The notes: a model not told the origin generated them from the sequence alone. A stretch of DNA of 64,000 nt from Paraglomus brasilianum (GCA_910592345.1 CAJVPI010000041.1:1-64000), one strand, 5' to 3'; shown: positions 24,266 through 51,395, numbered from the stretch's first letter. Translations and numbers: made by a program.

Positions 24266-25941
24266 ATGAAGATTTGCGTTCTTTGCAATAAAAATAAAGC
24301 CATCTTGAAGCGGCCTAAAACTTCTCAACAAATATGCAAAGAATGTTTCTATTATGTGTTTGAGACCGAAATTCATCATACCATTGTAGACAATAAATTG
24401 TTCAAACCTGGGGATAGAATCGCTATTGCTGCGTCGGGCGGAAAAGGTGTGAATTGCGTGTATGGGAGGGGAAATCATACTTTTCGTTTGAGTGGCTTGA
24501 CCTAGCATTAATTGAGCTTTGCTATTCAGATTCGACTGTGTTAGCATACGTAATAAAGCTATTGAATAATAGATACAACTATGGATTGAATCTGTTCTTG
24601 TTATCTGTTGATGAGGGAATAACTGGTTATCGAGATGATTCGTTAGAGGTGAACTATTGTTTACTTTACTTTGCTAGAACCCCATATCTTTCCATCATTC
24701 TCACTCTGACTTGCTCACTAGACAGTCAAGAGGAACCAGCAACAATACGACCTTCCGCTTGAAATAGTGTCATACCGTCAATTGTATGGATGGTCCATGG
24801 ATGAGATAGTTAAAGAAGTTGGGCTAAAGAATAATTGTAAATACCAGCGTGTACTTGTATTGATGTAATACGTGATTTTTGGTGATTCGCATTATACAAC
24901 TCGATTTTTTATATCGAATCAGGCACATTCTGCGGAGTCTTCCGCCGTCAAGCACTTGACCGTGGGGCAATGTTGCTTAACGTAGATCATATAATTACTG
25001 GACATAATGCAGATGATATCGCCGAGACGGTGCTCATGAACAGTACGTATCGTTATGCGCATGGATACGGGTAAATCGAGTTTTTTGGTAACTATTCGAA
25101 CCAAACAAGTTTCTTTTTGCTACTCTTAATAGTTCTCCGTGGAGATATTGCGCGTCTCCAGAGGTGTACCGAGATAGTGACAACCGGCGATGAACGTATA
25201 AAAAGATCGAAACCGTTCAAGTATACGTACGAGAAGGAAATTGTCATGTATGCCAAAAACGTGTCGATCAATATGGTTCGTGAATGACATACAAGTTGTC
25301 TGATTTAACGATACTTTTCGTATAGGTATGCATATTTCAAAAAGTTGGACTACTTCTCTACGGAATGTGTATACTCTCCAAATGCCTATAGAGGATATGC
25401 AAGAACGTTTCTGAAGGATTTAGAATCGATAAGGCCGAGTACTATTATAGGTAAATTATATCTGTCGTATAGCACTCACTCGTATTAGTATTGGTGCAAT
25501 CATGAACAGCAGTAAACCAACAACACATCTTTGTCTAGATATCATACATTCTGGTGAAGCTTTTCAAATCAAACAAGATGTCAAACTCCCAACTCAAGGC
25601 ACGTGTAAACGCTGTGGATACATGTCATCGAACGAACTATGCAAGGCGTGTATCTTGTTAGAGGGACTCAATCGGGGACTTCCAAAGTAAGTGTAATCTA
25701 CCTTTATTGCACATCTGTTACTTTTCATTATTAACGATATGTTTACACGAATTGATTAGGCTTGGCATCGGTAAGACGAACCGAATGGTGAGTTCTTTTA
25801 TACATCGATTATACGTATTACGTAGCCATTTATTAACCAAGTTTTATTCTATAGCGTAAAATTCACGGGGATATGCCCGATAACACAAGTACAATACAAC
25901 ATTTGGACACTCTAAAGAATGAAGCCAACAATAATAAGTAA
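24266..25941 (+). CDS. NCS6: Cytoplasmic tRNA 2-thiolation protein 1, multi-exon
   Basis: CVLC...CKECF...FETEIH, the spliced PP-loop [57 protein letters not shown] and [16 protein letters not shown]. Confidence 0.96.
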
Positions 25942-30596: not shown

Positions 30597-31588
30597 TTGT
30601 TTATAGAGAGTTTAGGTAGCGCAAAAGGATAGAAATCATTTAATGATAGAGAATTTTGGTTAATTGTTTTTTCCTAATACAGTACTTGTATTTGGAACGC
30701 AAATCAGATAAATTTCGTTTTATATATAAGATGGGATGCCGCAGCCATGGTCATTGTTATGTTTGTAATTACAGATTTTCCTAGCGATTATCGTCATGTT
30801 TAAAAGGTGAGCCACATTCCTAAATTAATCAACAATAAAGACGCGTCAATGTATTCACACAATTAATACGTGTGCGGTTTGGTAAGTTGTAATTCACACA
30901 ATTTGGTTGGCATCTACTTCCATCGTCTGCACAATACATTACCCAGTACCAACATATGTTATCTTTTTCTATCTATACGAATATTGTCCACTCGATTTGT
31001 CCATCTGTGGATTTTTATATGCCTGAAGTTTCCCATTCAATATAATCTGTGGTGACGTAATTTAATAAATCCCTCATGAATTAATGGATAACGTATAAAC
31101 GGCTTTGGGACTTCAATCGTGCATTTCTCAAGAGAGGATGGTTTAAATATACCATTCGGCTAGCCGAAATAGTATTGTTATTGTTGTAAATAATTTGATT
31201 TTCATAAGACATTCTTAACAAGCGAAGCGATGAAGTTAAACGAATTAATCTTTAATCGAACGAAAGGCTTCAGGAAACACGCGAACGCAATAATTCGTAT
31301 TACGCGTCACGACAAAATCAAATTCTACGAAAATTTATACACGAAATTATGTAAGATATTGTGTTGTTAATAGGTAACAAATCCTTATCTATACAAATAA
31401 ATAACCTTGGGCAACGAAAGTGAACGACCGCTGCACGCCTGCATCCGAACCGAAGGGAGATTCCATATAATGCGCCTAATAACTTGATAAATAGCCTATG
31501 CTGATGGTCTCAATAGCTTTGATGCCCCGATCAAATTTAGTCGTACAAAGTGGGGGCATCAGCTCTCAACAGCTTTCTAAACAGAGTA

Positions 31589-32060
31589 CAGTGAACCCTC
31601 TCTAATATCCACCCCGTTAATATCCACCTCTCTCTATTAGCAACAGTGGTTACAGAACGGATTTCCCCATATATAAATTCCCCCGCATATATCAATTTGG
31701 ATATCATACCCCGTTGATATCCCTATCAACACATATCAGATTTTATTCCTAATTAAATGTACCTCGCTGATATCAACATCAATATAAATTAGTATTTTAA
31801 AATTTAAAGTACTAAAGTATAAACATACTCCACACGTCTAATTCTGATAGTTGTAATGAAGGCAGCGACATTGAAATCGAAAAAATTTCTCATTCTACGG
31901 CATTGGAACAATGCGGATTACTTCTGCAGTATGTAGAACAACAAGACCCCGCCAAATTTGTAGAAGAGCAAGACATGCCAAGATTGCAAAGTCTGTTGCG
32001 ACGCATTCAGTCGAATATATACGAGGCGAGTCAACAAAAAAAGTTAACAGATTTTTTCGT
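31589..32060 (+). mobile_element. pogo/Tigger-like remnant (left TIR plus transposase C-terminal tail, right TIR not found)
   Basis: TA|CAGTGAACCCTCTCTAATATCCAC with ATATCC/ATATCA subrepeats. The reading KISHSTALEQCGLLLQYVEQQD...KKLTDFF is a typical pogo tail. Confidence 0.65.
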
Positions 32061-32400
32061 CCCCAATTCATAAGAGTGAACAAATTGGTTTAGTTTAATG
32101 GAGAAAGAAATAAAGAGATTTTTATTATAAATAAAGTTTAAGATTTAATTGGAGACATAAGTATCGTATATAATATCATTAATATGACGTCATTATTTAA
32201 AACCCTACTTTACATAAAATCCGCAAAATTGTGGTAACGAAAAACGAACCAATTTTATATTATTTAGATGGCGAATTCGCACCTACACGTGGGTTTGTAC
32301 TTGAGGAACTCATGCACGTGAATATTGATATGCTTCCCAGAGTATATTGGAAGAAAATACTCGTTCCAGGTCTGTTAATTTCGTTCGTATTATTAATAAA

Positions 32401-32871
32401 ATGGCTAAAGCCATTGCGTATGCTGAGAAGCGTGGTGGGAAATGTCTTGGTAAAACTAATCAAATAAATGGTTTCGATGTATATCTCTGGTCTTGCGAAA
32501 AAGGACTCCATCAATGGGAAGCACCTTATAAGATCCAGAAGCGGAAATTCGAGTGGTGTCCAATTTGTTTCCACCATACCGATGAGAGACGCTGTAGATA
32601 TATTTTCGAAGATTTGATGGGCAAAAAATTCCCGCCATGTGCACCAAAGTTCTTAGGTGGGTTACGTTTAGATGGTTATAACGAAGAGCTACAATTAGCG
32701 TTCGAATTTAACGGCTCACACCATTATTACCGCAGTGATTTGTATCACCGGAAAAACGGTGAGATCGACCTAGAGTCTCAAAAAAATCGTGATCAAAAAA
32801 AGCGAAAATTGTGCAAACAAAAAGGCATAAATCTTATTGAAATTCCGTATACCTGCGATCTTCTACCCTAA
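32401..32871 (+). CDS. Zn-ribbon plus PD-(D/E)XK/Vsr-like endonuclease of NCLDV type
   Basis: [21 protein letters not shown], then [43 protein letters not shown]. The stop may be premature, since the frame continues IHNALLEKGYL. Confidence 0.75.
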
Positions 32872-33048
32872 ATCCACAATGCATTATTAGAAAAGGGTTA
32901 TTTACCAAATATAAATACCGAATAACTTTCTGTCAAAGATAATAACGTTTATTATTTGGCCGTACATCAGTGGTACCACAAAAAAATGTTACGTAATAAG
33001 CTTCATCCATCTCATGCAGGCCATACGGCAAAACTTGATCGATGCGAA

Positions 33049-33783
33049 ATGTTTGTTTATCACATTGACGAGTGCAAAAATGCAGAAAGATTTAACTCAT
33101 TAAATTCGACGCCCCAATAGCCATTTAATGTTTTGGTCAGCGGACGAACTAAATCAGGAAAAACAAATATGATTGTCAATCTTTTACTTGGGGATAAGAT
33201 GTATCGAATGTTTAACGGGAAAAAAGGTGGAACACGCTATATAAAAAATGACGATCTACTGTTAATTGGACATCATCTTAAGGAACCCAAATATCGCCAT
33301 TTAAGGGATTGTTACCAAATCATTGCAAATAGTCCAAAGCCATATCGCGAAAATGTTACGTTCCGATCGATGAAGCCCGACAAAATACCAAAGATTGACG
33401 AATTTACTCCTGAAAGAGGGACGTTGGTTATATTCGAAGATTTATGTAGTGAGCCTAAAAAGGTGCAAGAAAAAATTATCCCTTACTTTACTGAAGGACG
33501 TCACTCAAACATCAGTTCAATCTACGTAACGCAAAGCTTTTTCGATTGTCCGAAATTAATAAGAAAAAATTTAGATTATATTGTGCTCTTTAACGGAGCT
33601 GGTACGTATGATGAATTGGTTGATATAGTTAGGCGGTATACAAAAAAATGGCGTAACGCTGTTGATATAATCGATAAGAATTTGCAAGGTCGGCAGTTCA
33701 TTGTAATTGACTTGACTAGAGCGAAAGAGGATCCTCTCTATATTCGTTTGGGTTGGGACACGCCTTTGAGATTAGATAAATAA
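33049..33783 (+). pseudogene. A32-like (FtsK/HerA) viral DNA packaging ATPase with one in-frame stop
   Basis: ATG 33049 is in frame, with TAG at 33118-33120 (PQ*PF). Walker A GRTKSGKT, Walker B LVIFED, and signature [35 protein letters not shown]. Confidence 0.88.
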
Positions 33784-33862
33784 ATTTAAAATTACAGATG
33801 CGAGTATTCTTCCCGCTCTTGACATAGTCGAGCTCCGTGTGTAAAATTTTGTAAATGTGACG

Positions 33863-34520
33863 TTACTCAGCCATACGGCCAAGCAAGAGCATTTGAGATC
33901 GTTGGTGACGTATGTCTTCACGAATAGTCCATAAAAGTTTGTAATGTTCAGCTAATTGCTTGACCATTAAACCATTGGGACGATACATGAATTCTATCCA
34001 TTTATGTTGGATAAGGGCGCATGCTCGCATCTTTTTCCCGACTTCCCTTGCCCGTTTAAGTTTGCTAATAGCATTTGACATCCATAATTCGTAATAACGC
34101 AATCCATAAGTATCGTCGAATGTACGATCAAATTTGGGTTTTTGTGTAATTTTCAAAAAATCTTAGTTCGCAATATTTATTACCAATACATGAAGTTTTC
34201 CAATGTTTCTCCATATATGCTTTGACATACGTGTATTTTCCAGTATATACTAGCTTGTCACAAGAGAAACAGATGACTATACCTATTGTTGGAGAGTATG
34301 AATTACTGTCTGGAAATCGTATCAACGTTCTGGCTTCAAGAAACTTTTTGTTATTAATATTCATAAAATTATTATTTCTGAAATATGTTAAGCTTTCCCA
34401 GATCCGTTCTTTCCACTCACCGGGAGTTTCTCCAATATGTACTTGTGGCATCCTGCAATATTCGGTCCATTCATCATCAGTGCATTTAGAATCGCGCAAA
34501 TCCTGAATAGTAACAATTTT
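33863..34520 (-). pseudogene. Frameshifted hypothetical gene of the element (Cys-containing)
   Basis: Two overlapping minus-strand ORFs (34128-34499 and 33863-34156) with ICFSC...HWKTSC. Intronless. Confidence 0.5.
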
Positions 34521-35260
34521 ATTATTTATATGACCAGTTATGTGCTACAAAGATATGCAATTTAATGGAATAAAGCGTAGTAGTGTTTCAGATGTACTAA
34601 TCATACACATTATAAATATTGGATTCAATTTTAATCGAATTGGCTCATCCAGGGTTTCATATTTTTTGGGGGTGTCTTAGCGAAACCAAATTTAACATTC
34701 AGCATGTATTGTGACCTCAATAATAAAAAGTTTTCTTATTAGTACGCGTTTTCTTTTTAAGACGTCAGCTGGGGGTTATTTCTCCACCATTCATCGCTTT
34801 CAGCTGGGCCATTAAAAATATATCTTGTTCAGATCTAGAAGAGCCTCACATAACTCGACAAACTTCTCGGAATTATTTTTGAGCAACCACAATTGCAACC
34901 TATTTCCAAGAAACGCATTGCTTTTTCGTATTCGGTTGAACCGTTATAATTATAATCTTTCATATACGGGTACTCCTATATATAATTTTTATTATTAACA
35001 ACTTATTACACTGTTCCTACTTTCTTGGAATCGAACTAATATAATAACGATAAGGCGCAAATAATATGGCACTTCATTTGCCACAATGTTCGAGTAGATT
35101 TATCGTTATATTTCCTAAAATACTAAAGTCAAGAAATTCAATCACTGATTAAGACTCTTGAAGATGTTAAAAATTTAATTTTCTGTTCATGAGCATAACT
35201 AGTCATTTGCTAAACCCAATACCTGCTGAAGAAAGTCAAAAGCGAACACTCCACTTGCCA

Positions 35261-37794
35261 TCACGTTAGTGATGAAATACTAGACTCGTAAACAAGGGGA
35301 TCTTGGGCCACAATTTGTTCCTCAGACCAATAATCGCCTGTCTCCTCATTTTCGAACCTCCACGCTTCATCAAATGGTGAAATAAAGGCGCCCAAAAGGT
35401 CTGCTAACTCTTCTTTGACAGTGGGATCAAGAAATTTGAAGAAATTCAATCCAAAGTGTGCAAAAGGGTGTTGTTGTTCTTCTTCAAGTTTTTGGCGTTT
35501 GGACTTGCGGATTGGTGGAACCTCTCTGAGTTGTCCCTGGAATCCGAGTTGCCAATATAAAGTGATGTATTGCTCTCCATGATCTTTGAGATCTGATTTT
35601 CGAAAAACGAACCGTGAAGTTAATTTGGATGAACCAGACTCTGGATAGCTCTTGTCTGCATTCCGGTCACTTGATGCATAGTTCTTCACTTGAATGAGGA
35701 TATAGGAGTATCGGTCTTCAGATAGTTTTACAGGGATCATAATGTCTGCACCGGGGTTGTTGCGCTTAAGAATTACAGCACATCGTCGTTGATAATATTC
35801 TTTCAAAGAACATGTTTTAGGGGCATATGTTATGGGAATGAAGTGTGTAAAAGCCACAGTTGCATCTACAAAATGTTGTAGGTCATCAACTGCAGCAGGA
35901 TCCAATAATTCCATTAGCCGTTTGACTGTGATGACGGTTGATTTCCATTCTTTCTTTTCCTGTATAGACCTCATTGCAAGAATTAGGATAATTCGTGCCA
36001 CCACTTCTCCACGAGGGCCTGCATCCACGAACCCTTTTTTCAGCATCTCATTAAACTTCTGCAGAACACAAACCAACGTATCATTATTAGTAATAGCAGA
36101 TAATGCTGCTTCTGCTAATAAAGGTTCCGAGGGATAACGAACTAACAAGCGCTCCCTGTCACGTGATACTGCAACACACGTTGCCATATGCAATGCCACA
36201 AGATCAGAAGCAATTTTTGACTGCGGTGAAATATCCAAACAAACAAGTACTGACAAAATGGCAATACTGGACATCTTTTTTTTGCTGTCTTTGAAAGCAT
36301 TTACTCCACCAAAGAGTTTAATCTGCAATAGTGATACCAGTCCTCTAAGGGCTACTTCAGTTGAAGAACTTGTCCGTTTGACATCAAAATAGCTGTAAAT
36401 TAACGGTCTCCCCAGCCTTGCCAATTGGACAATTTGACCTTCTTCAGACGTTCCTGCTGGATCTTCTGTTTTGCCTTCAAATATATCCATCGTCGTAAGT
36501 CTAATAAAAGGATGAAATAATTCAAATCCTAGGTCGTCCTTTCTTGCAGATGGGTCTGCTGATGAGGGTGGTGTAAAGTTAGAAATTTTGCTAAAAGTGT
36601 CCAAAAAGAGGACGAAGAATCCATTCCACCCGATATGTCTCATAGCTCTTCTAAGCAATCGAAATTGAGTACAACCATCATCTTGCACAGAATCAATGAG
36701 GGATCGTGCTTCATCAATACATAAGAGAATTTTGATTTGATTGTCAGAATTATCTGTGAACAGGAATTTATCCACATCGAGGTTCGCATCCTTCCGGTCA
36801 ACTTTCTTCCAGTCTTTACTGGCTTCCGATACCTCTTTCCAGAATTTATTGCACCATTCGTAATCCAGTTGCCATTTCCAGAGGTTCTCAGCTGATTCGT
36901 TGAGGGAATATCCATGCAGTTTTTTGATAGCGTGCCAAAGAATGAACATAAACCGCCATTCCTCTCCACCTGAGATCTGTCCTAGACTATCAAAGATCTC
37001 TGGTGCATAAGGCGTAGCAGGCGGATATCCTGTACTTCGCCTGGGGCGTAAACACACATATAAAGTGGGAATTTTCATTGCAATCTGCTCAATAAGGCGA
37101 GTTTTTCCATAGCCAGAACTCTGAAAGAGCGTTCCATAAGGTAAGTGATTTTTCTTATTAGCAAACCAATACGCGTGTTTCTTATTGATGTAGTCCCGAA
37201 ATCGTTCGACTATTTTCAATGGATCCTGGTATGGTATTTTGAAAGCTTCCACAAAAGCCTGTTTTTGCTGGTGCAGCACAGCCGCAGTGGTTTTGTCGTT
37301 TTGAGTATCCTTTGCTAAAGAATGCATAGGAGGAGGAAAAACACCAATTAGTCAATGTTGCAATGGTAGTTTGATCTCAATGCTTGTAATGCATTTGAAC
37401 TACTCTCCCTCTGTTGACCCCATGGCTACTCCACAAACCCCCGTTGCTCCTCTATTAACCCATAATGTCTCTTGTCCCCTCGAGTTCTCTTTGAATGAGT
37501 TTATTATTATGTATAACCTAGCTCTGCTACGATTCTGCTCTGTCCCAACTAATAACGCCCAACTGCCTCTCTCTCTTCTTGCAATATAGCACAAAACCAG
37601 TAACAGTATTCAAACTCTTCTCCCCATTGCTCCTCTATCCTCTCAATAAACGTGCGTGGTTTTGCTTGCTTACCGTGTTTTTTAAGATATTCCTCATATT
37701 CTTCTTCTGCTTTTGCTAAGGTGGCGTTGGGATGTTTACGACTGTATTGCCATAAGAACTCCTCTTTCCTCATTACTCTTGCCGTTGGGTCCAT
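35261..37794 (-). CDS. Crinkler-type P-loop NTPase plus PD-(D/E)XK nuclease protein (688-aa exon intact, 5' exon(s) degenerate)
   Basis: Walker A QSSGYGKTRL, Walker B LLCIDEAR, FLDTFSKISNF, YPSEPLLAEAA, GPRGEVVARIIL and nuclease-like NPGADIMIPV...ILIQVKN. Probable intron at about 37316-37403, with upstream ORF 37549-37794. Confidence 0.8.
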
Positions 37795-38418
37795 GTCTAA
37801 ATGTTTTTATGACTTAGTGGATGTAATAAAAGAAGAGTCGTGATCTAGCTCTGCGCCGCCCACTCAGCCCCTGTTTATACGTCTTACTTACACAAACATG
37901 TGATACTCCTTCGTATTGAAGCGCCGAATCAACTACAGGTGCCAGGTCCAGCACACTTAGCAAAATAGATCGGGAACCCGCCATGCTTTTGTTAGAGATA
38001 AAGGATAATGGAGACAAAGGGAAAATCTCTTTTATACACATATCACGTTGCCACAATGTTGTTCCCTGATGTATTATGTAGAATCCGTGTTACGCTATTG
38101 CTGATACATACTCAGGAATGTAAATCTATTTCGGGCCCAATATGCGCAGAAGGTCAAATTGCATAATAATAACCTGACCCAAGAGTTCAGATCACGTGAA
38201 ATACAGATATTTTCAAAAAGCTCGTATATTAATATGAATGAAGAGGGGTCAGAATATCATTTTTTACAGAACGTAGTGAATCGATATACAAGTTCGAATA
38301 TTAATCTACGTATACGACAGCCACCTATTGCGAGGTTGCATGGGAGAGAATAGTCGGATCCAAGGCCTGCCTCGAGAGGCTATGACTATTCCCTATTCTT
38401 TGGCCTCACATACATAAG

Positions 38419-38640
38419 CTATCCAACATTATACTCATTTATTTCTTTGTTCCTCAATTCCATCCAACACTTGATCGCGCCTATCGTTCTTTTATCAGAT
38501 TTTCTTTCTCCATTATAAAAACTTTCTATCGCTTTAGCTCCGATAACTTGCATCCCCTTTTCCTTATTGACATCATCTGCAACCGTCTTAAACATATCAG
38601 ATCCAACAATACTCATTCGTACCATATACTTTTCAAACAC
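38419..38640 (-). CDS. Small hypothetical protein, possibly HTH
   Basis: 73-aa ORF FKTVADDVNK...IGAKAIESFYNGERKSDKRTIGAIKCW. The start is uncertain. Confidence 0.4.
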   Translation of the reverse strand: MFEKYMVRMSIVGSDMFKTVADDVNKEKGMQVIGAKAIESFYNGERKSDKRTIGAIKCWMELRNKEINEYNVG

Positions 38641-38734
38641 TCTCTTGAAATCCCGTAGCAGGGATTGAGAGACTGAGCTCGAAAACGATCTATGCGACGA
38701 TGCTGTATATATAAATGTCTTTTAGTACCGTACA

Positions 38735-39067
38735 TCAGTGGTATGTGGCTCCTTCGGCGATTGAAATAACGCGAAAGGATAGACACTCACCATGAGAAAA
38801 ACTCGACGTATTACTGAATCTGTCACCTTCACGAATTGTTTGAACTTCGTCATGAATCAAGATAATTTTTTCATTGAGTTCATTGATTTTATTAGCAAAA
38901 TCTTCGCTTAGCGAGCGGATCGCGTTATTATTTTGCTCTTGCTTACTATTTTGTGTAACATTATACCATACGAGTCCAAAAAATAAACTCGATGCTAAAT
39001 TTTCAGCGAAAATTGATCCAGCGATCAAAATAAGGAGAAAAGCTTCGGCGAAGTTGAATTGAGACAT
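38735..39067 (-). CDS. Small membrane-anchored coiled-coil protein
   Basis: MSQFNFAEAFLLILIAGSIFAENLASSLFFGLVWY is hydrophobic and is followed by a heptad-rich segment. Confidence 0.45.
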   Translation of the reverse strand: MSQFNFAEAFLLILIAGSIFAENLASSLFFGLVWYNVTQNSKQEQNNNAIRSLSEDFANKINELNEKIILIHDEVQTIREGDRFSNTSSFSHGECLSFRVISIAEGATYH

Positions 39068-39834
39068 CTGCAATTTTAATATAGTTGTATGAGTATTCGC
39101 TAAGTTATACCCAGACGTTGCGCAGCGCATAGCGATGTATCGAGTGTTTACTTTGAGAACGCACGGAAGTGATAGTTACCTTATTTTTTGCGGTGCCGCT
39201 AAATAATAATCGGGTTGCGATCTTTTAGTGTGATGCGTGAAGTAAAAAAATACAGTCTGATAGATTGTTAATCGTTGGTCAGGATGTTTGATTTATTGAG
39301 CCAACGCTTTGATAATGTTTTTTCTTACCCAAATCTCCGCCGTACGGCAGCGTTTTATACATCAAAGCTTGTTATTAACAAACCATAGCATTGGTTCTTC
39401 AGATTTCGTTCTAAATCGAAGTAATAAATTACCAGTATAACAAGTTCATACAGCTATAACAAATAATAACAGCGATTTTATATTTATGAATCTACGTTAT
39501 ATCAACTATCCGTGGCATTGGTCTTCTACGTCTCGAAGTAATAAATTATTGACGATCAATATGTTATTAATAGCCTGTGGCACCACTCTGAAATACATCT
39601 GCTCCTCAGAGATTATTTGCGTGCGTAATGATAAGATTGTCCACACTAACAATCACAAAAAACCATCGAGGTGATAATATCTCACCGAGAGAAATCTGAA
39701 ATTTTTTACCCGATTCCTGTTTAGTGATATGGAATACGGTTTTATCAGTTTCGGTCATTGTAAATGTTAAATTATTTTATTAATACGAATTTAAAAATGC
39801 AGAATTAAATATATTGTTATAATAAAACATCACA

Positions 39835-40218
39835 ATGATAACTTTATTCTGCGAAATCAATAAAGTACCAGTAACAGCTATATTAGATTCCGGTGCTAAT
39901 TGTAATATCATAGGCGAGAGTATAGCAAAAATAGTAGGCTTGAAAATTGATAATACCTCTGATACGGAAATATACAGTTCCATTAGCGAGCTCAATATAT
40001 TGGGAATAATTCGTGCAATGGAAATTTTGGTCCTGTCTCAAGATCAGAAATGGGAGCAAGTAGAAGTTAGTGATGTTTTCGTTACCAATAAACCCGAACT
40101 TGAATCTGTACTGATATTGGGTCAGCCATGGTTCCAGGAAAATGCAATGAAACTGGACTTCCCAAATAAAACTCTTACGTTGCTCAATGGAACTAGTTGC
40201 GAGGTTAAGTGTAATTGA
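39835..40218 (+). CDS. Stand-alone retropepsin-like aspartic protease
   Basis: AILDSGANCNII catalytic motif and C-terminal LILGQPWF. No gag, RT or integrase nearby. Confidence 0.85.
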   Translation: MITLFCEINKVPVTAILDSGANCNIIGESIAKIVGLKIDNTSDTEIYSSISELNILGIIRAMEILVLSQDQKWEQVEVSDVFVTNKPELESVLILGQPWFQENAMKLDFPNKTLTLLNGTSCEVKCN

Positions 40219-40314
40219 GAATATCTGGAAAATCTGTAGTATATATGCCTAAAATTTCGTACCATGTTGCATTGTAAGTTATTGCATATTTCTAATACAA
40301 TAAATATTAATTAT

Positions 40315-40480
40315 TTATCTCGCAATAGCAAATTCCCATATTTCACGAATTCGTGCATATGATACATTATATTTTTTAGCTAGATTCCGTAATGCATTTG
40401 CTGAACCCTTAGCAGTAATTATATCACTAATTGCTTCGGGGGATAAGCGTGTAGCACCTGATCTTAATCTTCTAAGCAAG
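40315..40480 (-). pseudogene. Small HTH DNA-binding protein fragment
   Basis: LSPEAISDII...LRNLAKKYNVSYARIREIW has a helix-turn-helix pattern. Confidence 0.5.
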
Positions 40481-40647
40481 GCTAAGAGAAAAAAAGAAAA
40501 TTTTAACTTATACCGTATCTGAGTCCTCATCCTCGTTCCTCATCTGGGTCCGACTCTGAATCGTCTAACTACGAAGTGACTACCTCCGGCGACGATGATA
40601 AAGATTTAACTGTGAATGTGGGTCGTACGATAAGCAAAGAAGCGTAG

Positions 40648-41716
40648 TTAGTCTTTATCATAGATTCGAAATAGTCTTGCTTGCTCTGGGGATTGATTTT
40701 TTCTCCGATAATTCACCACAACATAATTTTGTACTGGTGAGGTGTGATTGTCAGGATTGTGGTGTAAAGCTTCTCCAGCGATTGTCATAGCATGAGCTAA
40801 ATTCTTTGCCCCATGTACCACCACAGCATATACAGCCCCTATTTTACGTAAATGGCGAGGAATTAAATTATAACCTTTTAAGAATCTATTAAACCATTTG
40901 GCCCCTGGCTTACCTGGGTTACCCATTTGGCCAGAAGATATAGCGTTCTGTATCCAGGTTAGCAATTCTTTGGCTCGTTCTTGATTCTTTTCCATAGATT
41001 TAAATTTTCTATGAATATCTGGCTGACCCCTGTTCTTCGCATAACCCGTTACACCGGCATTTGTAATACGTAAAGTAGTAACTTCAGCGGGACGCATACA
41101 GAGCATCAGCAAGGGCTTGTGAGTCAGGCAGTGTCTTAATGTTATATTTATTTAACCGATTCTAATGTAAAATGATCTGGATAGTCGATTTTCTCAAAAT
41201 CCTCAGCAATTTTTCGTCGACTTGTCTGAATTTTGTTAGACTTATCTGTAATCTCAAAGATTTTTGTCGCTTCAACTATATTATATGGAGCATTAAGATT
41301 TCGTAATTCTTTCCGAAGCCGGGAAAGCCTAGAGGACCCAGCAACTTCATTCAAAGCCGACTTAGCTAACTTTATTGCTTCGGCTTTTACATCCTTTTCA
41401 CTAAGTTTATCTTGTAAAATCCGTTGTGCTATCTCTTTGATGGTTTCCTCCGATTTTACCAAGGCCTTGCCTAGGCCGTACGGCAGAGTTACGATATTTA
41501 TATCTTTTCGCTGGCTTTTTCTCTGAGTAGGAATTAATATGCTTACCTGTTCCTCACTGAATTTGAAACCATCTCGAAGACGTCTTCGTGCTTGATTTCG
41601 CTTTCTATCATCTGTAAGCTCTTTGAGCAATTCAGAAGTATACTTACTGACTCAGATACACTCATTCCTGGGTTAAGATTGTATTTTCCAACGATCGTTG
41701 TTGCAATAGCTGACAT
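40648..41716 (-). pseudogene. Tyrosine recombinase, protelomerase (telomere resolvase)-like, frameshifted
   Basis: Joined from ORFs 41543-41731, 41148-41630 and 40648-41112. The catalytic order is R (CMRPAE), K (TGYAKNR), R (RHLRKIG), H (EALHH), Y (PVQNY), after a helical N-terminal region. Confidence 0.7.
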
Positions 41717-42017
41717 TTCGATTATATTCACTTTCTTAGGTTATGTCCTCTTTGCTAGGTTATATACTATGCAAAATATTCTTTCAATTCGAAAATAATT
41801 ATCGGTGTTTCTTCTACAGCAAAAATGCCAAATGTCGCGACCATTTATCGTTTGAATATCTTTAATCAGAAGAAAAACAACTAAAGTTCGGATAATTAAT
41901 TTGGGCGTACATATACTATGTATTTTCCGGATGTCACCCAAGCTTTGTCTAAATTATTACGGATTTTAAGCATAATTGAAATTAAGAAAGAAAAATATAA
42001 ACATAAAATAATAATAT

Positions 42018-42263
42018 ATGGATCGCGTCACCTGTCCGCATATAAAGAGGGATGGTTCTATTTGTGGGAAAAGTTGCTGACGAGTCACAGGGTGTTCGTT
42101 GCACTGGGCTTTACATGATAGGAATATAGCGAAATTTCCTTGTGGAATCTGTGGGAAACTAACAATTTCTGGAACGGGGTATTGCCCTAAACATGCGAAG
42201 AGGGTTTATTTTCGAAATTGGTATGAGAGACAAAAGGCACAGAGAATAGAAGCTGATACGTAA
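42018..42263 (+). pseudogene. Small double Zn-finger protein (not in ORF track)
   Basis: MDRVTCPHI/EDGSICGKSC*RVTGCSLHW...FPCGICGKLTISGTGYCPKH...IEADT*, with one frameshift and one stop. Confidence 0.6.
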
Positions 42264-42423
42264 TTATATTCACTTTTGCCAAAGATAGTCACTATATGAC
42301 TATAGATATCAGTTTTAAGCATCACAAAAATGGTCTTCGTAGTGGGATATTTTTTTACAACTATCATTTTTAAGCGTCACAAAACCCCTTTGTAAAATAT
42401 ACCACAGACTCTAAATGTTTGTT

Positions 42424-45400
42424 TTAAACGATATCGAATAAGACCTGGGTATTCTGTGAGATACACGTAGAATTAGGAGGCGGTTCTAATTCATCAGGTG
42501 AGAGTTTACTATAAGAATACCGCCAATCTTCTCCATTCTCCCAATCTTCGCCCGTTTGATATGGTGGTAATTTGGGAGCACCCTCATTGTCAAATGCTCC
42601 AACTAAATGGTAATGCGTATTTTTATTATTAGTAGTTTTAAACTTTATCCCATAGAATGCAGAAAGTGCTGAATTTAATAAACCAAGTTTTGCTTTATCC
42701 GATTTTAAGCCAGATTTTTTAGCACTACGAGATGGGTCTGTATTATCAAAAACCCGAGCCATTTTTGGTACTAAATTTTGGAGGTATTGTATCGATTCTG
42801 GTGAGTTTAAGCACATTTTAACGTCATTAACTCTTTATATCTATTTCGATCGTCAATATCTTTAACCGGTGTACAAGTCTTTATTAATTCCAGACAGATT
42901 CGATGTTTTTCAGTTCTAGTAACGGTTGTGAGTCTATCATTTCTATAATCTTCACGGGTAATTGCCTCAACTGCCGTCTCATTGTTAGTGCCGGCATCTC
43001 GTAATTTCCGGAGAGCTCTAAACCAGCACATATGATTATAATTTCCAAACTCCGAGATGAATTCTTCAGTCAAAGACTCAGGTGTTATATCATAGCAATT
43101 TACAATATGGTGTCGGTCTAATGCTCGCATTTCTTCTAAAGTTTTCTTTGGTTTATTTTCTAGATGCTCAGCTGTTTCGCGGTTAATAATATTTGCATTT
43201 GCAATATCCGAAATTTCCTCTGCTTTAATAACCGAAGAATAACCCTTTACTGTTGCAGTTAATGTCATGGTATTATCTTCAGGTTTGGGAGTTGGCTCTA
43301 TTACTGAAACTATCATACCCGCCTTTCGGAGAAAATCAACCATTCTCCAACCAAATAGACGTTGAGAGCGGAATTTTTCCAACATATATGCCACCCATAA
43401 TCGGATAGTTGGGACATCTTTATTTCGAATAATAGTATCTATATTTGGAAATATTCCTCTATTCTGTAGCTCTTGAGGGAGACATCCGCGCTTTGCTTCC
43501 GTTAACCATTGAAACAACTCCTCTTCTGTAGTTGGGGCTTTAGATGTTCTTTGTTGAATATAGCATAAATAATCTTTAATGCAACGCATGCGGAATAACA
43601 TCTGATTAGTCCCAGCATTTGTTTCTATATAACTATTAAAGAGACAGAATGCACGCTCAAACTTAGGATTGGTGCAAGAAACTCCTATTTTTAATGTGCT
43701 AGTATATGCAACCAGATCAATATTTTTCCATGCCTTTTCTACATCTCTGAAATCTCGAGTCTTTTCTATGGGATCGGACTTACCATGATATTCTTTTATA
43801 CGTAAATTAGGGAACTCCTCTTTCAGACTACGCACAATACCTTGAATATTTCTCCTCTCATGGCAGATAAGTGATGCGCTTTTTCGCTCCTCAAAAGGTA
43901 GTGATGATATTTCCTTAGCCCAATCCCAGAGCTCTATTAATACAGTTTCTTTATCGGAAGCAAGACGGAATGTTTTACCTTTTTGGGGCTGGTATGTGTT
44001 GTGGATAACTGAATATTTCTTATTCGGTCGAAGTCCTTTAATCCATTCAATATTAAGGTCAGTGAGATCATTATCTAGTACAATAACCCTCTCTGCCTGT
44101 GTTATTAATTCTGAGAAATTAGCAAGAGATATAGATAAACCACTTAACCGAGTTTGTGTTTGCGCAATAACCGATACAATCTCATCCAATGCTAGAATAT
44201 AAGGATTTGGAATACATTTACATTTTTTAGTCCCGCTAACCCCATTATCACATTTACATTTATTAGTAATGCGATGTAAACTTTCTACCTGGCACACTAC
44301 CCTTTGATGATCTCTGAGATTTATAGGTCCATCAATATCGCAATACGATTTGAGATTGAGCCTAGTGGTGACGGCATCTGAATAAGTATGTCGAGTTGAT
44401 ACTACGAGTAAGCTTGTATTTTCAGGAATATTTAAATTTTCCATGGCATATGTTTTCCCAGTTTCCCAAGGCGATCCTATATAAATATCGTTTTCTTTAG
44501 ATAGAGGTTTCACATATCTTTCTTCATATTTTTCTGATGCGGTAAGGGATTCATCGTATTTAACCCAAGATAGCATTTTTAGAAAGGCCTTTGGGAATCC
44601 CGAGTCTTTTGTTTTATGAGAGGTAGGTGGTAAAATATTATTTTTTATTTTTTTGTTGGATTTTTTCTGCAATAGATGGGTCATTGAAAATTTCCCCTGA
44701 TTCGTCACGATTTTGCTGGAAACATTTCACAATGAATGAACCATTACCATATGCACGGCCAAACCACCGCTGATCCTTGTCGTGTGTGCGATTACATAGT
44801 GGGCATTCTAGATATGTTTTTCGATTAAAATATACGAAATGTTGGGAATCCTTTTCTTCGATATCCCAACCACCAAGATAATCAGGATACTTCTGCAAAA
44901 CTAGATTCGCGTATTTTTTTAACGCATCTTGACCCACGATTATTTTTTTCTGATTATTTATTTTTTCTGTACTAAGTATACGGGGTCTTACTTCATATCT
45001 CGAACTAAAAGGTGGTTGAACTCTGGCGTCATTGAGATCATTCCACCCATTATCTAGTGAGAATTGAAGTATGCGCTTTACGCGGTCTTTTTTCGCAGAA
45101 CCGATGATGCGAAGATTAAAATTTCGACCAGGTAATCCCTTATCAATAAACTTACCATATTTTTCTCCCGTTAATTTATATACCAATTCTGTAAATTCTT
45201 TAAGCTCCTGATAGTCAATAAGGAGAGCTGGAGCGTATAGAAGGTGGTAACTACATTTGTTAGAATCGGAGGATGAAGCAATTACCAGTCCTTTGAGAAT
45301 TTCCTCCCAACTACAGTCAAGGATTCGATATAATGCTCTTATAAATGAACAACAAATACGAATGAAAACGTCATCAGCAGTTACAGTATCAGCTCGCATT

Positions 45401-46008
45401 TTCTCACTAGAGGCATCAATATCAATCACAGGTCTCAAAGGTCGTTGTCCGTTAATACATTCATGTACTCCAGGAACCCCATATACTTCAGAAATATTAT
45501 CTACAACTGAATATTTATAATAACCCCTCTGTTCTACTTGGATGACTAATCTATCAACCAATTCTTCTCGTGTGTACGCATCTAGCAGACTAATTCCTTC
45601 TTTTGCTCCGTAATTAGGTAAGAGATAATCCCATAAATGTATATCTTCTAATGATCCTTTATTGTTCGACATATCTCTGACAGGTGAAGAGACAATTTTG
45701 CGGATTCTATTTAGTAGATCCATTTGAGTGAATTTATTATCGAACTTTTCTTGCCTTTGAGTATATATAACTCCCACTCGATCTGTGGAATTTGTCGAAT
45801 TAGACATTTTCTCTTCTACTTTAGGAGGTTGGGAAATTGGAGACTTAATAGTACTAGTCTCGGTATATGACTCATATTCAGAGCCATAATCACTGCAATT
45901 TTCCGATTCACATTCGGATATATTATCACTATATTTATCTGAGTCGCTTGAATAGTCATCGGTTTCCCCGCCGTCGTACCGCTCGAGTTGTGCGTTGCGT
46001 GCTGTCAT
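42424..46008 (-). pseudogene. Fused AEP primase, Zn ribbon and UL9-like origin-binding SF2 helicase (~1190 aa, two frameshifts)
   Basis: AEP motifs RPVIDID, KCSYHL and FIDKGL..NFNLRIIGSAK. Zn ribbon CPLCNRTH..KCF. Helicase motifs SPWETGKT, VSTRHTY, CQVESLHRI, LDEIVS, YTSTLKIGVS and QMLFRMR. Breaks at about 44645 and 42820. Confidence 0.88.
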
Positions 46009-46150
46009 TTTTTTATTGGTATGTATCAATCTTTGTTCGATTATATTATTACAATATAGTTTGGAAAAGTTTAAATATCGATATCAAAAAAATGCATCGA
46101 GTTTTAATGAGATAAATGAAGAGAATCGCGATCTTGATTAGTGAATACTT

Positions 46151-47335
46151 TGGGTATATAAGTTCGGTAATATATATGGAAGTTATATACCCATTTTGAT
46201 AATATGTTTTTGGGTAGATAAGTTCATACTTTGATTATATGTGTTCGGGGTATATAAGTTCAGTAATATTATATAAGAAAAATGGGAGTTATATACCCGT
46301 TTCGATATATGCTTTCAGGGTATGTGATCGGGTGTAGACCCAAAGGGTCATTGCTTTGCAATAGTAATATGCAGAATATGTATAAGAAAAATGGCAACAC
46401 GCTACAATTTTTTCGGGTCGGGGTAGATATCTACCCACCTTAATAATATGTCTTCGAGTTATAAGTTCAGTAATATTATATAAGAAAAAACGGAATTATA
46501 TACCCAGTTGATAGTATGTCGTCGGGTATATGCTCAGAGTGTATAAGTTCAGTAGTATTATACCATTTGACAACATGTTTCTGGGTATATTTTGGATATA
46601 TTTTCGGGGTGTATAACTTCAGTAATATTATATAATAATTATGGGAGTTATATACCCGCCTTCCTATATAATTAGTCAAAGTTAACCCACTTTTTTACTA
46701 CGTATGTTCTCAGGACATATTTCTGGTATCAAAAATTCTGGCAATCGAAATCGACATACTTTAATATAACGTACGCGATAACATTTTTTTAATAGCATAG
46801 CCCGATAGCATATATATGATAGCATTATCGATAGCATTTATGTGATATACTCTACGGAGTAGGATGCTTGCATCTAGCATACATATTTGGTGGCATACCC
46901 GATAGTAGGAATATAGCATACCCGATAGCAATAGGTAGGTAACATTGGGCCAGCAAATGATGATGCATAACTGAATGCATCGTTGGTATTTTTTTTGCTG
47001 ATGTGGCCCAGTGATGGGAATTGGCCACGAACACCAAGCCAGCATACAAATATCGCGGATCGGAATATTATATAACAATATCCTTCGCCGATATGTTTTC
47101 GGGTATTTAACTTCAGAAATATTATATAATAATTATGGAAGAAGAATACCCTTTGCTGATATGCTTGGGGTATTAGTCTGTATTCGGAGCATTACGATCG
47201 GGTATTCAGCGCCGTACGACTCGGAAATATTATATAATAAAACCCTTCGCTGATATGTTTTCCGGATATGTCGTTATAAGATAGGGTATATAACTTCAGA
47301 AATATTATATATAAATTATGGAAGTTATATACCCT
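46151..47335. repeat. Array of palindromic units GGGTATATAA(C/G)TTC-[AT-rich spacer]-G(A/G)AGTTATATACCC
   Basis: Copies at about 46151-46193, 46248-46298, 46458-46505, 46607-46657, 47101-47151 and 47283-47335 (perfect 15-bp arms, 23-nt spacer), plus half sites. Confidence 0.9.
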
Positions 47336-47589
47336 CCTATTTAAACCGATTCAAGTATTAATCTTTCCTCTGGAAAGCGCTTATAGTCGAGTATAATTTA
47401 TTTTTATTTTTTTAGCTCTAGCTAGCTCAGCGGTACCGCCAAATAACGGCGGTGTAAACACAATTCTATCGTTACTTGTTTTAATATTTGCTTCGCAAAT
47501 CGACCCAACCACGCTCTAGAGATCAAATAATATGACAAAAATATCGTTATTATCCTCGGCTGACTAGCTTCGGTTTTCTTCTCGGCCGG

Positions 47590-47845
47590 TAATGCCTCGG
47601 CTGAATGACGACGCAACCACAGACGCATCGTCACTCGAACAATGACGCAAACGCGGCTGACTTTTCCAACTAACACCTCAGCTGACATCCTCGATGGGTA
47701 CAAAGGCAAATGACGATGCAAACACGATCTTGTCGTCACTCGAATAACGACGCAAATGCAAACACATCGTCACTCCATAACTGTTTACTTCTTCAGCTAA
47801 CACCTCAGTTGACATCCTCGGCAAATGACGATGCAAATGCAAACT
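47590..47845. repeat. Interleaved short direct repeats
   Basis: TAACACCTCAGYTGACATCCTCG x2, GGCAAATGACGATGCAAA x2 and TCGTCACTC x3. Confidence 0.8.
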
Positions 47846-47866
47846 CATGGGTGGGAGCGGGTATAT

Positions 47867-47958
47867 CCTAACTGAGAGGTCATAACCTAGTGTCATAACC
47901 TAACTGAGATGTCATAACCTAGACTAAGTGGTCATAATATAATTATATTATGACCACT
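47867..47958. repeat. Subterminal GTCATAA repeats ending in a perfect 32-bp palindrome (candidate hairpin telomere)
   Basis: GTCATAACCT at 47879, 47892 and 47911. AGTGGTCATAATATAA|TTATATTATGACCACT at 47927-47958. Confidence 0.95.
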
Positions 47959-48511
47959 GTTGTTAACTGCTCATTTAATTCAGCACTGCTCAGATTTGGG
48001 GGAAATAATTGTTCACAATCTTCAGAATTGTCATTCTCACTATCACTTTCAAAAATGATAAGGTCTATTTCAGCAACATTCTTAGTCTCTGCATCTCCAT
48101 GCTGCTTCTCCTTCCCTTTGTTTTTGATACCTGAAGATGATTGTTGTCCAATCTCCTAGTAATATTGAGTTGTACGAGCATTGAAAAAGTTGTAAGAGAA
48201 TTTTTCCACATTGAATAATTAAACAACTTAAAAAGGAGCTTATTGAATATATAATTAAAGCTTACCCAGCTATCTGCTGGCAATGAATACTTATGGTCCA
48301 TGTCAAATACAAAAGTTTTTATTGATCTGACTTCTCAATACTACTAACTGTATTAGTTTTCTGAAGAAATTCAATGCATGATAATAAGCAATGAAATTCG
48401 CTTGTTTATTGATTTTATAGGATCTTTATTGACAATTCGCTTGTGTGATGTGATACAATTGGAGTTGAAATTAACCAATCACTAGTCACTGATAACACAT
48501 TCTGTATACGT

Positions 48512-48790
48512 ATGACGAATACAACAGTTTCAACTTATCTAAAAGACAGGGGGGAGAAGAGCGTAAATACCTTGGAATCCCAATGTGAATCTTTTGTTTA
48601 TGCCAGAGTCTCAAGCTCAAAACAGAAAGAAGATCTTGAAAGACAGAAACAATACCTCCTCTCGCAGTTTACAAACCACTGCCTTATTTCAGACATCGCA
48701 CCAGTATCAATTTCAACTAGTTTCTACCAATCGACACTTGGTTGTGAGTAGTAAAACCTGTTTGAAGGTCACTAATGGTCGTTTGTATTT
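48512..48790 (+). pseudogene. IS607-type serine recombinase (TnpA) fragment
   Basis: VYARVSSSKQKEDLERQKQYL...ISDIA, then a frameshifted LVVSSK. No TnpB/Fanzor is visible downstream. Confidence 0.8.
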
Positions 48791-51395
48791 AACTAAGAGT
48801 AGAGAAATCACAGCTTCGTTCGAAAATAGCTAAATCCGAAGGTAAACAATTAATTGTTCTGCCTGTATTAATGAGAGTAGAAAGTAGAGATGATAGTGAT
48901 TTATTTGTTGTTGAAAGAAATTTATGTATGAAGTGTAATCTTTCCAGATAGTCCAAAGAGAGGCAGACATAAGAAGTCGAGCTGTGAAGTGAGTGAATGA
49001 GACGATGATGAATATTAATATACGTTTATATAAACTTTGATAAACGAAAGCGTAAAAGCAATTTACATGAATTTTGAACGTGGACGGATTATTGGTCTGG
49101 AAAGTCCCATGAAGTTATGGCTCGTATTCTAAAAGTTTCAAAAAGGTTACATATTAAGAGCTCTTTATGTAGTAAGTACTCTTATTAGTTTACCATCCCT
49201 ATGAATGGACAAGCTGATGAGGTAGTACTTATGGAAGATTTATTTATTGTTTGATAAGTTATACGGCGAGGTATAAATAGGATAAATAGCACAATTACTG
49301 AAAAGTCCGTTAATCACTGCGATTAACATTTAGTCAAATTACCTTCCCACAAGCTTCCACTAACAATACAATTACTGATATAGTAGCTCCTACATTGCAT
49401 ACAGTGACTGCAACAATTAGTTGTCGTTATTCGCTCTTGATTTATTATTCTCGTGACATCCGAATAAGTATTCGGGTAAGATTTACACAGTGAACCTGGA
49501 TATAACTAAGTGGTCTGTCCGCCCTTTTAGCAAGTTTCCTCTTTATTAGAAAGTTCTACACAGTCAAATTCACTTTAACGAAGACATTCATTCCACGGTT
49601 TGCTTTGTTAATCTGAAAAGTCAAACTCGTATGTCAACCAATAAAATTACAGAGTTCGAGTTGCGATTTACCAAAATGAGAGATCGAAGTTATTATTATC
49701 TTTGTAACAAGTAACCAGGTTACGTCTCTCCATTGACTGAAACTACAAAATAGCATTGTCAGTTGAAGAGGGAGGACAATTAATCAGCTGACCTTGAGAT
49801 ACACAACCTTCTGATAGTTAGCCTGCGAGTGAAGTCGTAAATCTCTTTACCTAAATATTGTTTTTGGGAGTTCTTGCTGACGATTCCTGGATTACAATAA
49901 ATCGAGTTCTAATTTTTGTTTTTCTATTAGATGGGTTTCTATTCTAATGCAAGGAACCGGCCGAAAGTAATTGACAGTGGCGATAGAAAGAATAGTCTAA
50001 ACTGTTTTCGGTAATAAGTAGTAATTTGTTAGTGTAGCTGAGCACGCACGCGCATTCAGACTTCTATTGCAACTCTACGTTGAGGCTATGGCTATTCACA
50101 GTTAGGCAAGTTCTGTAAATAGCAGCGAAGGTTATCGATTCTCATTAATAATCATAAAGTCGCCATCCGTCGAATTCGGTACCCAATCGATAGGTAAGTT
50201 ATTCATTATGTTCATTCGATAATTCGTGTATTATAAGACTTTATTTCGAATTCTTCCATTAATCGGAATAATCAGTATCAGAACATTGAAATATTCGAAT
50301 GTATCGAACATGTAGAAAAGGAAAATAATTATTGTTGCACCAAGAATTATTCTTCTATTAAAAACACCGTACATTCGTAAGGCAATATGTGGAATTCGAT
50401 GAGACGATGAGACGCGTCTGATTTTGTAATCACACGCTACGGAGTAATATCAGGATAAAGATAGCGTTCCTTTTGGCTTTAATATGACGGTAAACTATTT
50501 AAATGGATCATAAAATAAATAAGCTCTAGTGTGGATAGATAACAATGCTTCGAGTGCCCGAATATAATTGACATCAAATGAATAATATAAATAAAACAGA
50601 TAACTCACCCTATGGCTGGCCTTTACCCTAGCACTGTCATTCTCACCAAGTTCTTTCTAACACTCACTATCGTTTCTTCGTTTGTTAAAGTGTTATTTGT
50701 ATAATTTTGGTATACTTATTCATACCACTACTTCATTTAGCAAGAATTCGGTTATTGATTGGCTGGCTTAGTAAAATATTACCATAATTTCCCTTGTTAA
50801 TATATTACGTACGACAGTTCATACGTCAGCAAATAAAAAATAAATAACACTCATTTAGTGGTAGAACAGAAAGTAGCTTTTCGCCATATTAATATACACT
50901 AAGTACATATTTTAAATCTTTCAGCCAATCGCCGATGCCGAGAATGTCCATTAGAGTTTATCCACCTGTACTAGGTTTATTTATATTCAAAAGACTGCGG
51001 ACATGTCACTTAAATATTCGTACAACTTGGCAAAACAATGGATCAAAGATCCTCAATATACAGAGACTGCAAGTCATTGCCTACTTTATTGATACTTACA
51101 TGACTCTCGACATCTGCCTGATATGTGACACTTCCTACATTACGTTGAAAGGATGTAATGCATTTTATTGAGATTGAAAACAGAACCAATAAGTTACGTG
51201 TCAAGGAAATTAACCGACTAATATGCTACAAAGACTAATGAAATGGATTTCATGACTTCCATCTTCAGTCTAACCCTTCTTTCTCTGAAACACTCACTTT
51301 CGATTCAAGCTTATGAATAGGAGTATCCAAGTTATATTGAATCATATAGACTCTCCCTTTGTTATTCGATCATCTTGAACTCTTAATAATGTCTT

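Follow-up and report, generated by a model that had tools for sequence, protein, structure and literature searches.

A Maverick/Polinton-related element of glomeromycotan fungi with a terminal palindrome and a recombinase of predicted protelomerase fold

Gene content and order of the element

The 64-kb window analyzed here, by which the whole stretch of DNA counted from its first letter is meant, is chromosomal DNA of the fungus Paraglomus brasilianum. Its central part, a stretch of about 16 kb that ends at position 47958 and is flanked on both sides by open reading frames (ORFs) of host type, is a copy, broken and truncated at the left, of a glomeromycotan mobile element related to Mavericks/Polintons. 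The remains of an integrase-endonuclease gene, a packaging ATPase, a tyrosine recombinase, a primase-helicase, an array of palindromes and, at the right end, a perfect palindrome are found there. An initial annotation of the sequence had read the locus as an endogenized linear virus or plasmid with hairpin ends.

At the left edge, 45 codons of an integrase-like C-terminus of the Maverick type have been kept (32201..32335, plus strand), with 59% identity to the related protein P0226 and aligning with the integrase C-termini of P0224, P0225 and the metagenome locus L014. A Zn-ribbon endonuclease, frameshifted from the integrase in this copy, comes next (32329..32871, plus strand; PHROG 559, E 6e-17; 61% identity to P0224), and then an A32-type packaging ATPase (32986..33783, plus strand), which matches PF04665 Pox_A32 (E 1.5e-7 over 33121-33780) and has 279 homologues at E<=1e-10. 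The profile matches bear out the first identification of these two genes as an A32-type ATPase and an endonuclease, the latter initially taken to be of the kind found in nucleocytoplasmic large DNA viruses (NCLDV). In L014 the endonuclease forms the C-terminal half of a longer ORF that contains the C-terminal half of the integrase, and full-length gene models in Rhizophagus irregularis and Diversispora epigaea have an integrase-like N-terminal domain, then the endonuclease, and run on into the ATPase; the fused integrase-endonuclease thus sits directly upstream of the A32 ATPase in the relatives. The name given to the integrase-like protein in UniRef is 'Integrase catalytic domain', and the full domain is present in P0224 and P0225. 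Since an integrase-like gene stands beside an A32 ATPase in this family, the element is Polinton-related. The locus had originally been set apart from canonical Polintons by the absence of both a DNA polymerase of family B that is primed by a protein (pPolB) and a retroviral integrase. The first absence holds among ORFs of at least 200 aa in the window element, L005 and L014, a comparison that leaves outside it the left end and 3.9 kb of the L014 contig; the second is not supported, given the integrase-like domain of the relatives and its stub in the window.

The same arrangement recurs elsewhere. A metagenome scan yielded 60 loci, most of them shorter than 2.6 kb, among which L005, L006 and L014 (99.5-99.7% identical) are copies of one element and are counted once. 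L005 and L014, 99.7% identical where they overlap, jointly cover about 16.6 kb in the window's order, namely palindrome array, primase-helicase, small Cys-rich ORF, recombinase, retropepsin, variable cargo, conserved ORF, ATPase and endonuclease-integrase. The retropepsin is also next after the recombinase in four further loci (L001, L033, L039 and L042; tblastn). In annotated fungal genomes, ATPase and recombinase gene tags lie close together at three loci, Glove_158g4/g17, Glove_74g153-155/g165 and C2G38_2229855/2229859, being 13, 10 and 4 apart. Of the seven D. epigaea scaffolds on which an ATPase is tagged, two have a recombinase tag no more than 15 genes away (rough p 0.005-0.014, with a gene number of 20,000-35,000 assumed), and one Gigaspora rosea locus also pairs the two. 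Co-occurrence in conserved order is thereby established for one metagenome element, and that of ATPase and recombinase for three annotated fungal loci.

The replication gene (42424..46008, minus strand) joins an archaeo-eukaryotic primase (AEP) to a UL9/CyRepA1-like helicase. Its helicase part matches Herpes_ori_bp (UL9) of Pfam (PF02399, E 5.7e-16, 42810-44726) and the CyRepA1 plasmid replication family NF042913 with E 1.4e-51, which is below the family cut-off, and the part at 44641-45720 falls among AEP primase clusters that are mostly from Nucleocytoviricota (score 0.98). Identity to L005 is 78% at the DNA level over 3.3 kb. Both domains of the primase-UL9 helicase fusion proposed initially are thus present; the fusion itself is broken in the window by frameshifts near 44640 and 42830, and one ORF runs across the junction in L005. 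In some recombinase subfamilies (P0193, names from G. margarita, L012, L030 and L047) the gene seems to follow a helicase of another, D5-like type (one fused gene model matches PF19263 with E 3e-9), which suggests swapping of the replication module.

Upstream of the primase lies an array of imperfect palindromes of about 51 bp, with arms of 11-15 bp and AT-rich spacers (46151..47335), a candidate origin or protein-binding array that had been noticed from the start; four of the eight hairpin-type inverted repeats of the whole window fall within it. L005 has the same array upstream of its primase; the arms there differ in sequence but still pair over 17 positions, suggesting that symmetry is under selection.

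This copy is dead, as six conserved genes are disrupted. The ATPase has an in-frame stop (33118-33120); four reading-frame pieces make up the recombinase, three the primase-helicase and two a conserved ORF (33863..34517, minus strand). The left end is missing, as nothing of the element is present to the left of about 32200. The broken edge adjoins DNA that looks like a short element and a transposase tail (31590-32200; no Pfam match) and may resemble the pogo/Tc5 family. An Rfam search of 30000-50000 gave no match. Among assembled contigs, those of run X7 span the element and hardly its flanks, and those of run X1 show no excess depth; contig coverage says nothing of copy number. A high-copy short repeat lies within the element at 34700-34960, with a summed depth about 10x that of its neighbors in run X1.

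The recombinase and the terminal palindrome

The recombinase gene (40648..41716, minus strand) encodes a protelomerase-like tyrosine recombinase, whose catalytic R, K, R, H and Y motifs are still visible in the pieces. It has 78 homologues, of which 15 are nameless metagenome proteins and the 63 with an organism name all come from Glomeromycota (Gigaspora, Diversispora, Entrophospora, Dentiscutata, Cetraspora, Scutellospora, Paraglomus, Rhizophagus and Geosiphon), the family being richest in Diversisporales and Entrophospora. A profile search extended the family to 591 representatives at E<=0.001, including divergent proteins from Logan, ENA and JGI. Prokaryote genomes gave no match, and annotated phages gave none for the recombinase and one weak match for the helicase. 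The recombinase tree is a quick, unrooted version with long branches, from which no inference on origin is drawn. Ten relatives (P0123, P0133, P0149, P0158, P0168, P0174, P0182, P0195, P0210 and P0219) are compact and divergent (27-36% identity), on contigs of up to 22 kb. An identical recombinase occurs under three D. epigaea accessions (the P0016 cluster), two of them tagged scaffold 73, with a near-identical one on scaffold 74; these duplicates are a sign of recent activity or of tandem copies.

Sequence profiles found no relative of solved structure for the recombinase. Its fold was compared by means of a predicted model. A full-length model (pLDDT, the predicted local distance difference test score, of 61) was poor and failed to separate Cre from TelA, and a core model was used instead (L005:5784-6611, 46-row alignment, pLDDT 92.7). 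Against 48,161 chains, the four best matches of the core were TelA, TelA, TelK and ResT (Z 14.0, 13.8, 12.9 and 8.6). TelA aligned over 254 of 276 residues with a root-mean-square deviation (rmsd) of 4.2, TelK over 251 with 4.3 and ResT over 140 with 4.4, whereas the best other chains of recombinase fold, phi3T SroF and lambda Int, reached Z 7.2 and 7.0; a second comparison agrees. In a Foldseek search of the PDB, the first seven rows were protelomerases, with query-normalized TM-scores (TMq) of 0.45-0.51 vs 0.26-0.40 for the listed rows of Cre, lambda Int, Xer and Tn1549. The recombinase is thus predicted to have a protelomerase fold, with a helical bundle and a catalytic domain as in TelA and TelK, in keeping with the protelomerase of the initial annotation. 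A shared fold does not show that the enzyme makes hairpins.

In the 46 rows of the alignment, the active-site residues are R128 (43 rows), K147 (43), R210 (41), H239 (33, with 9 gaps) and Y251 (32, with 12 gaps). The usual motif of tyrosine recombinases is H-x-x-R; position 207, three before the second Arg, is His in none of the rows. In the available part of its structural account, TelA has Tyr363 at the equivalent position and an Arg366-His394-Tyr405 spacing of 28 and 11, and known protelomerases are described as cutting palindromes with a 6-bp stagger (PMC3558466). The R-H-Y spacing of the fungal family is 29 and 12, a correspondence by motif and spacing and not by residue-level superposition.

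A perfect 32-bp palindrome with 16-bp arms closes the element (47927..47958, center 47942/47943), as proposed from the first reading of the sequence. The palindrome is a candidate both for the protelomerase target and for an opened hairpin end. No loop-free palindrome in the 64 kb is longer, the runner-up having arms of 8 bp, and across 30 first-order Markov simulations arms reached at most 11 bp vs the 16 observed. The subterminal region before it (47360..47926) contains short direct repeats. Beyond 47958 the window matches no fetched locus or protein of the family. A 66-codon open frame enters the palindrome from the right, which fits insertion, but it is too short to count. About 500 bp beyond the end lies a fragment of an IS607-family serine recombinase (48449-48748, plus strand; NCBIfam E 6e-8, Pfam Resolvase E 2e-4).

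A second version of this end is found in L036, an independent soil contig whose recombinase gene is 72% identical to that of the window. Bases 1-32 of L036 form a perfect 32-bp palindrome, identical to the window's at 26 of 32 positions. The six differences make up three compensated pairs, so that symmetry is kept, and the shared subterminal stretch follows; over the final 61 bp up to 47958 the match is 80%. The chance of such compensation is about 2e-5 by combinatorial count if the changes are independent, while a shuffle control, weak with two rows, reached the score in 48 of 500 cases. A candidate palindromic target, symmetric through its center and linked to a recombinase, is thus present in both sequences (n=2). 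L036 lacks the DNA from its end to the middle of the recombinase gene. The contig ends precisely where the window's palindrome has its outer edge, and its orientation relative to the recombinase is the same. Such an end fits either many insertions that diverge there or assembler read-through of a true hairpin; either cause places the element end at 47958. Two contigs of soil run X5 diverge from the window at 47914 and show the 12 letters of L036 there, and one contig of run X4 ends at 47939.

A proposed life cycle and its alternatives

From the gene content and order, the range of the family and the terminal palindrome of two divergent copies, taken together with the predicted fold, we infer a life cycle, each step of which is conditional. 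In this proposal, to which we give a probability of roughly 60%, the element is a Maverick relative without a capsid; its replicating form is a linear molecule with hairpin ends, and it integrates by hairpin opening. Cleavage of the palindrome by a recombinase dimer, staggered by 6 bp around 47942/47943, would be followed by resealing of each half as a hairpin. The primase-UL9 helicase would be loaded onto the palindrome array and copy around the hairpins together with a host polymerase, giving end-to-end junctions, which the recombinase might resolve into unit-length, hairpin-ended molecules. For integration, the integrase or the fused endonuclease would nick 16 nt from the hairpin tip and join the opened end to chromosomal DNA. 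A nick at that distance would rebuild a perfect palindrome at each insertion and so account for the compensated pairs. Were the same recombinase to excise the element, the chromosome would be left with breaks capped by hairpins, a cost perhaps bearable for a fungus with many nuclei.

Several results weigh against this life cycle. The terminus is carried by one of the 60 metagenome loci, L036, so that two versions of it are available, and L036, an internally deleted or rearranged copy, could owe its end palindrome to assembly read-through. Hairpin-ended molecules were not observed in the contigs of four runs, where none of the 15 joints listed (of 121) changes strand at the palindrome, and neither a second end nor a target-site duplication was found in the window. 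The Foldseek E-values all exceed 0.001, and in a viral structure library a phage integrase (E 0.006) came just ahead of the telomere resolvase of EhV-86 (E 0.023), with a TMq of 0.29 vs 0.42 for the resolvase. Searches of Pfam, NCBIfam, PHROG and PDB sequences gave no match between the recombinase and protelomerases, and in eight scans of viral contigs, run with the recombinase, the helicase, the ATPase, a pair of distant recombinases and two end patterns, no relative appeared. As for the integrase, Pfam rve matches one of three integrase-like proteins weakly (E 0.04). The domain has two Asp motifs, with Glu at the third position in P0226 and Lys in the Rhizophagus-type rows and L014, and sequence-profile searches of the PDB gave no match. 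No unassigned ORF of capsid size is present in the window element or in the about 16.6 kb of L005/L014, the left part of the family and the folds of small ORFs lying outside that comparison. The status of virus is thus unproven, no capsid partner for the ATPase having been seen; the ATPase may be a relic, a DNA translocase or the partner of a capsid gene in the left part.

An enzyme with a protelomerase-like fold might still be an ordinary site-specific recombinase, which would join terminal palindromes to excise the element as a circle or integrate it into another replicon. Matches of the model extend to Cre and lambda Int (Z 6-7), and there is no sequence link between the recombinase and protelomerases. 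Protelomerases, in contrast, score about twice as high as any other recombinase over the whole 276 residues, and the terminal site is symmetric through its center, unlike lox- and dif-type sites, whose core is asymmetric. Virophages with an RVE integrase as well as a tyrosine recombinase are known, which the available text of a recent preprint reads as two integration routes (bioRxiv 10.64898/2026.07.28.741278). On balance this explanation seems unlikely. That the palindrome is a self-priming hairpin of the parvovirus or poxvirus kind, opened by the integrase or the endonuclease while the recombinase acts elsewhere or otherwise, appears quite unlikely. Hairpin copying alone could explain the compensated pairs, but the element has its own primase, and a conserved enzyme of protelomerase fold would be left without a target, the window containing no other loop-free palindrome with arms longer than 8 bp. 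The self-priming and protelomerase readings are not mutually exclusive.

The locus might also be a fragment of a larger, phaeovirus-like endogenous virus, in which the palindrome would be an internal tel site and the capsid and polymerase genes would lie elsewhere. The NCLDV-like primase and the 3.9 kb of the L014 contig beyond the integrase, outside the compared sequence, leave room for this, and phaeoviruses offer a precedent with an internal telRL-like site in the available part of the report (PMC13236599). We consider it very unlikely, as the DNA to the right of 47958 matches nothing fetched of the family and holds the IS607-like fragment, L036 stops at the same edge, and five R. irregularis genomes yielded no major capsid gene, according to the text available (PMC10640383). 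The heavily broken state of the copy and its variable middle would, finally, fit a nest of unrelated transposon remnants in which the palindrome is a repair scar. This is highly improbable and already largely refuted by the same order in L005/L014, the second version of the palindrome in L036 and the proximity of ATPase and recombinase at two D. epigaea scaffolds and one G. rosea locus.

Cargo, significance and relation to known systems

Between the ATPase and the recombinase lie several further genes. The conserved ORF mentioned above, which has 222 aa in L014 and 45-50% identity to it, falls into Atlas clusters without a family name; a degenerate second copy lies 9 kb from the element (56588-56909, minus strand; E 1e-9). 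An intact P-loop ORF of 696 aa (35261..37351, minus strand), overlooked in the initial annotation, is cargo or a later insertion. It has no match in Pfam, NCBIfam or PHROG or in the 60 loci, and it may resemble Crinkler-type nucleoside triphosphatase (NTPase)-nuclease proteins. In the variable region (37549..39175, minus strand), small unassigned ORFs match none of the fetched loci or proteins. The retropepsin-like aspartyl protease (39826..40218, plus strand; PF13975/PF09668), convergent with the recombinase, was recognized from the outset and is upheld by a Pfam match over 39826-40215 (E 5e-6). A small Cys/His-rich ORF between helicase and recombinase (42024..42263, plus strand) is 76% identical to that of L005 and has similar counterparts in L012 and L049. 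Proteins of leucine-rich repeat (LRR)/F-box-like or RING type are frequent as cargo beside the recombinase or ATPase of relatives (L012, L027, L041, L044, L005/L014; P0037, P0038, P0226, P0362), and the element family may spread the LRR/F-box-like and RING gene families that are expanded in these fungi. Away from the element, the window contains an ORF of 1184 aa (7992-11546, plus strand) with about 13 tandem 102-bp repeats of tetratricopeptide (TPR) type and a RING-like motif, domains that were named by eye. A hairpin with 18-bp arms (868-909), two short elements at 1081-1258 and 57603-57781 that lie inverted to each other at a distance of 56 kb (93-97%), and a fold-back element (59533-59927) are probably miniature inverted-repeat transposable elements (MITEs).

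How the ends are completed in Polinton-related elements that have no protein-primed polymerase is an open question, for which the proposed life cycle, if correct, names a candidate enzyme; hairpins, but no resolvase, were put forward in a 2026 preprint (bioRxiv 10.64898/2026.07.28.741278). The abundant 'Maverick' repeats of mycorrhizal fungi would be re-read as a different kind of replicon, and a protelomerase evolved in fungal nuclei would be useful for making closed linear DNA. The proposal is directly testable with one enzyme and one 32-bp substrate. Parts of the element were anticipated, since the available part of one study suggests recombinase-based end resolution for poxvirus-associated Polinton-like viruses (PLVs) and expects Polinton-like elements with a primase-helicase in R. 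irregularis (PMC11296320). A reading of Polinton-like or fungal elements that combines protelomerase and terminal palindrome was not found in the literature searched; by title or abstract, the work on Glomeromycota Polintons contains no such report, and no fungal protelomerase element is among the matches listed. Outside that literature are the original descriptions of the Glomus Maverick/Polinton, reportedly by Kapitonov and Jurka in 2006 and Pritham in 2007, which could lower the novelty. A wider proposal, possible rather than probable, is that arbuscular mycorrhizal fungi host previously unrecognized N15-like nuclear linear replicons, capsid-less and hairpin-ended, where a protelomerase carried by eukaryotes would have taken the place of the protein-primed polymerase that a Maverick ancestor had. 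Such replicons would shuttle between chromosome and episome, their F-box/LRR, RING and NTPase cargo would help drive gene-family expansions, and in PLVs and virophages generally the terminal palindromes may be due to the same protelomerase family.

Cryptons and Starships are fungal mobile elements that have a tyrosine recombinase and cargo, and an A32 ATPase, a primase-helicase or a palindromic hairpin end is not known from them. Assignment to either was rejected, in line with the initial view, as the recombinase family matches no Pfam recombinase model, has its nearest fold among protelomerases and is accompanied by further mobility genes. Polintons typically have long terminal inverted repeats, target-site duplications of 5-6 bp and 5'-AG ends. 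The element differs from them in that no pPolB was seen in the compared sequence, and thereby falls outside them, and in lacking a cysteine protease; it has the AEP-UL9 helicase, the recombinase of predicted protelomerase fold, the retropepsin and the terminal palindrome. Without a capsid, which in PLVs is of double jelly-roll type, it cannot be filed as a PLV. Glomus and Rhizophagus elements have been published as 'Maverick/Polinton', with no capsid found, in the parts available of four accounts (PMC7805220, PMC11952901, PMC8647823, bioRxiv 10.64898/2026.06.19.733378). As described there, they share with the element a glomeromycotan host, an integrase-like gene beside a Polinton-type A32 ATPase and the lack of a detected capsid gene, and they are probably the same or a sister family. 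The compared portions of the accounts mention none of the helicase, recombinase, retropepsin and palindrome. One of them, in its available part, gives Maverick expansion as exclusive to Glomerales, whereas the element's family is richest in Diversisporales and Entrophospora.

In end structure, the closest systems, as far as the accessible text goes, are the endogenous virophages and PLV subtype 4 of Halocafeteria seosinensis. Like the element, they have perfect terminal palindromes and non-pPolB replication genes, and they carry an RVE integrase, to which the element's integrase-like stub may correspond; virophages and PLVs with such replication genes end in palindromes that adjoin target-site duplications, some have an RVE integrase alongside a tyrosine recombinase, and hairpin ends have been proposed for them (bioRxiv 10.64898/2026.07.28.741278). 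Unlike the element, in which no capsid was seen, they have capsids, and their recombinase is read as an integrase, the word 'resolvase' not occurring in the text (bioRxiv 10.64898/2026.07.28.741278). The endogenous phaeoviruses of Ectocarpus, in the sections available, are likewise integrated eukaryotic DNA elements, using a telomere resolvase and a palindromic, telRL-like tel site, but they are giant viruses that form virions and a circular intermediate, have a separate tyrosine integrase and carry the tel site internally (PMC13236599).

The systems of N15, TelA and ResT are bacterial, and the element's recombinase has no detectable sequence similarity to theirs. A primase-helicase replicator, which is RepA in N15, is common to the element and N15-type plasmids, and the element's helicase matches CyRepA1 plasmid replication proteins. 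We know of no DDE-type integrase or A32 ATPase in these systems. The protelomerase fold, predicted for the element, and a palindromic target, for which the element has a candidate, are shared with the N15 and phiKO2 linear plasmids, Agrobacterium TelA and Borrelia ResT, as given in the available part of the account (PMC3558466). The element would work like the N15-type linear plasmids and the phaeovirus elements, and by descent it would derive from, or sit beside, the Mavericks and PLVs.

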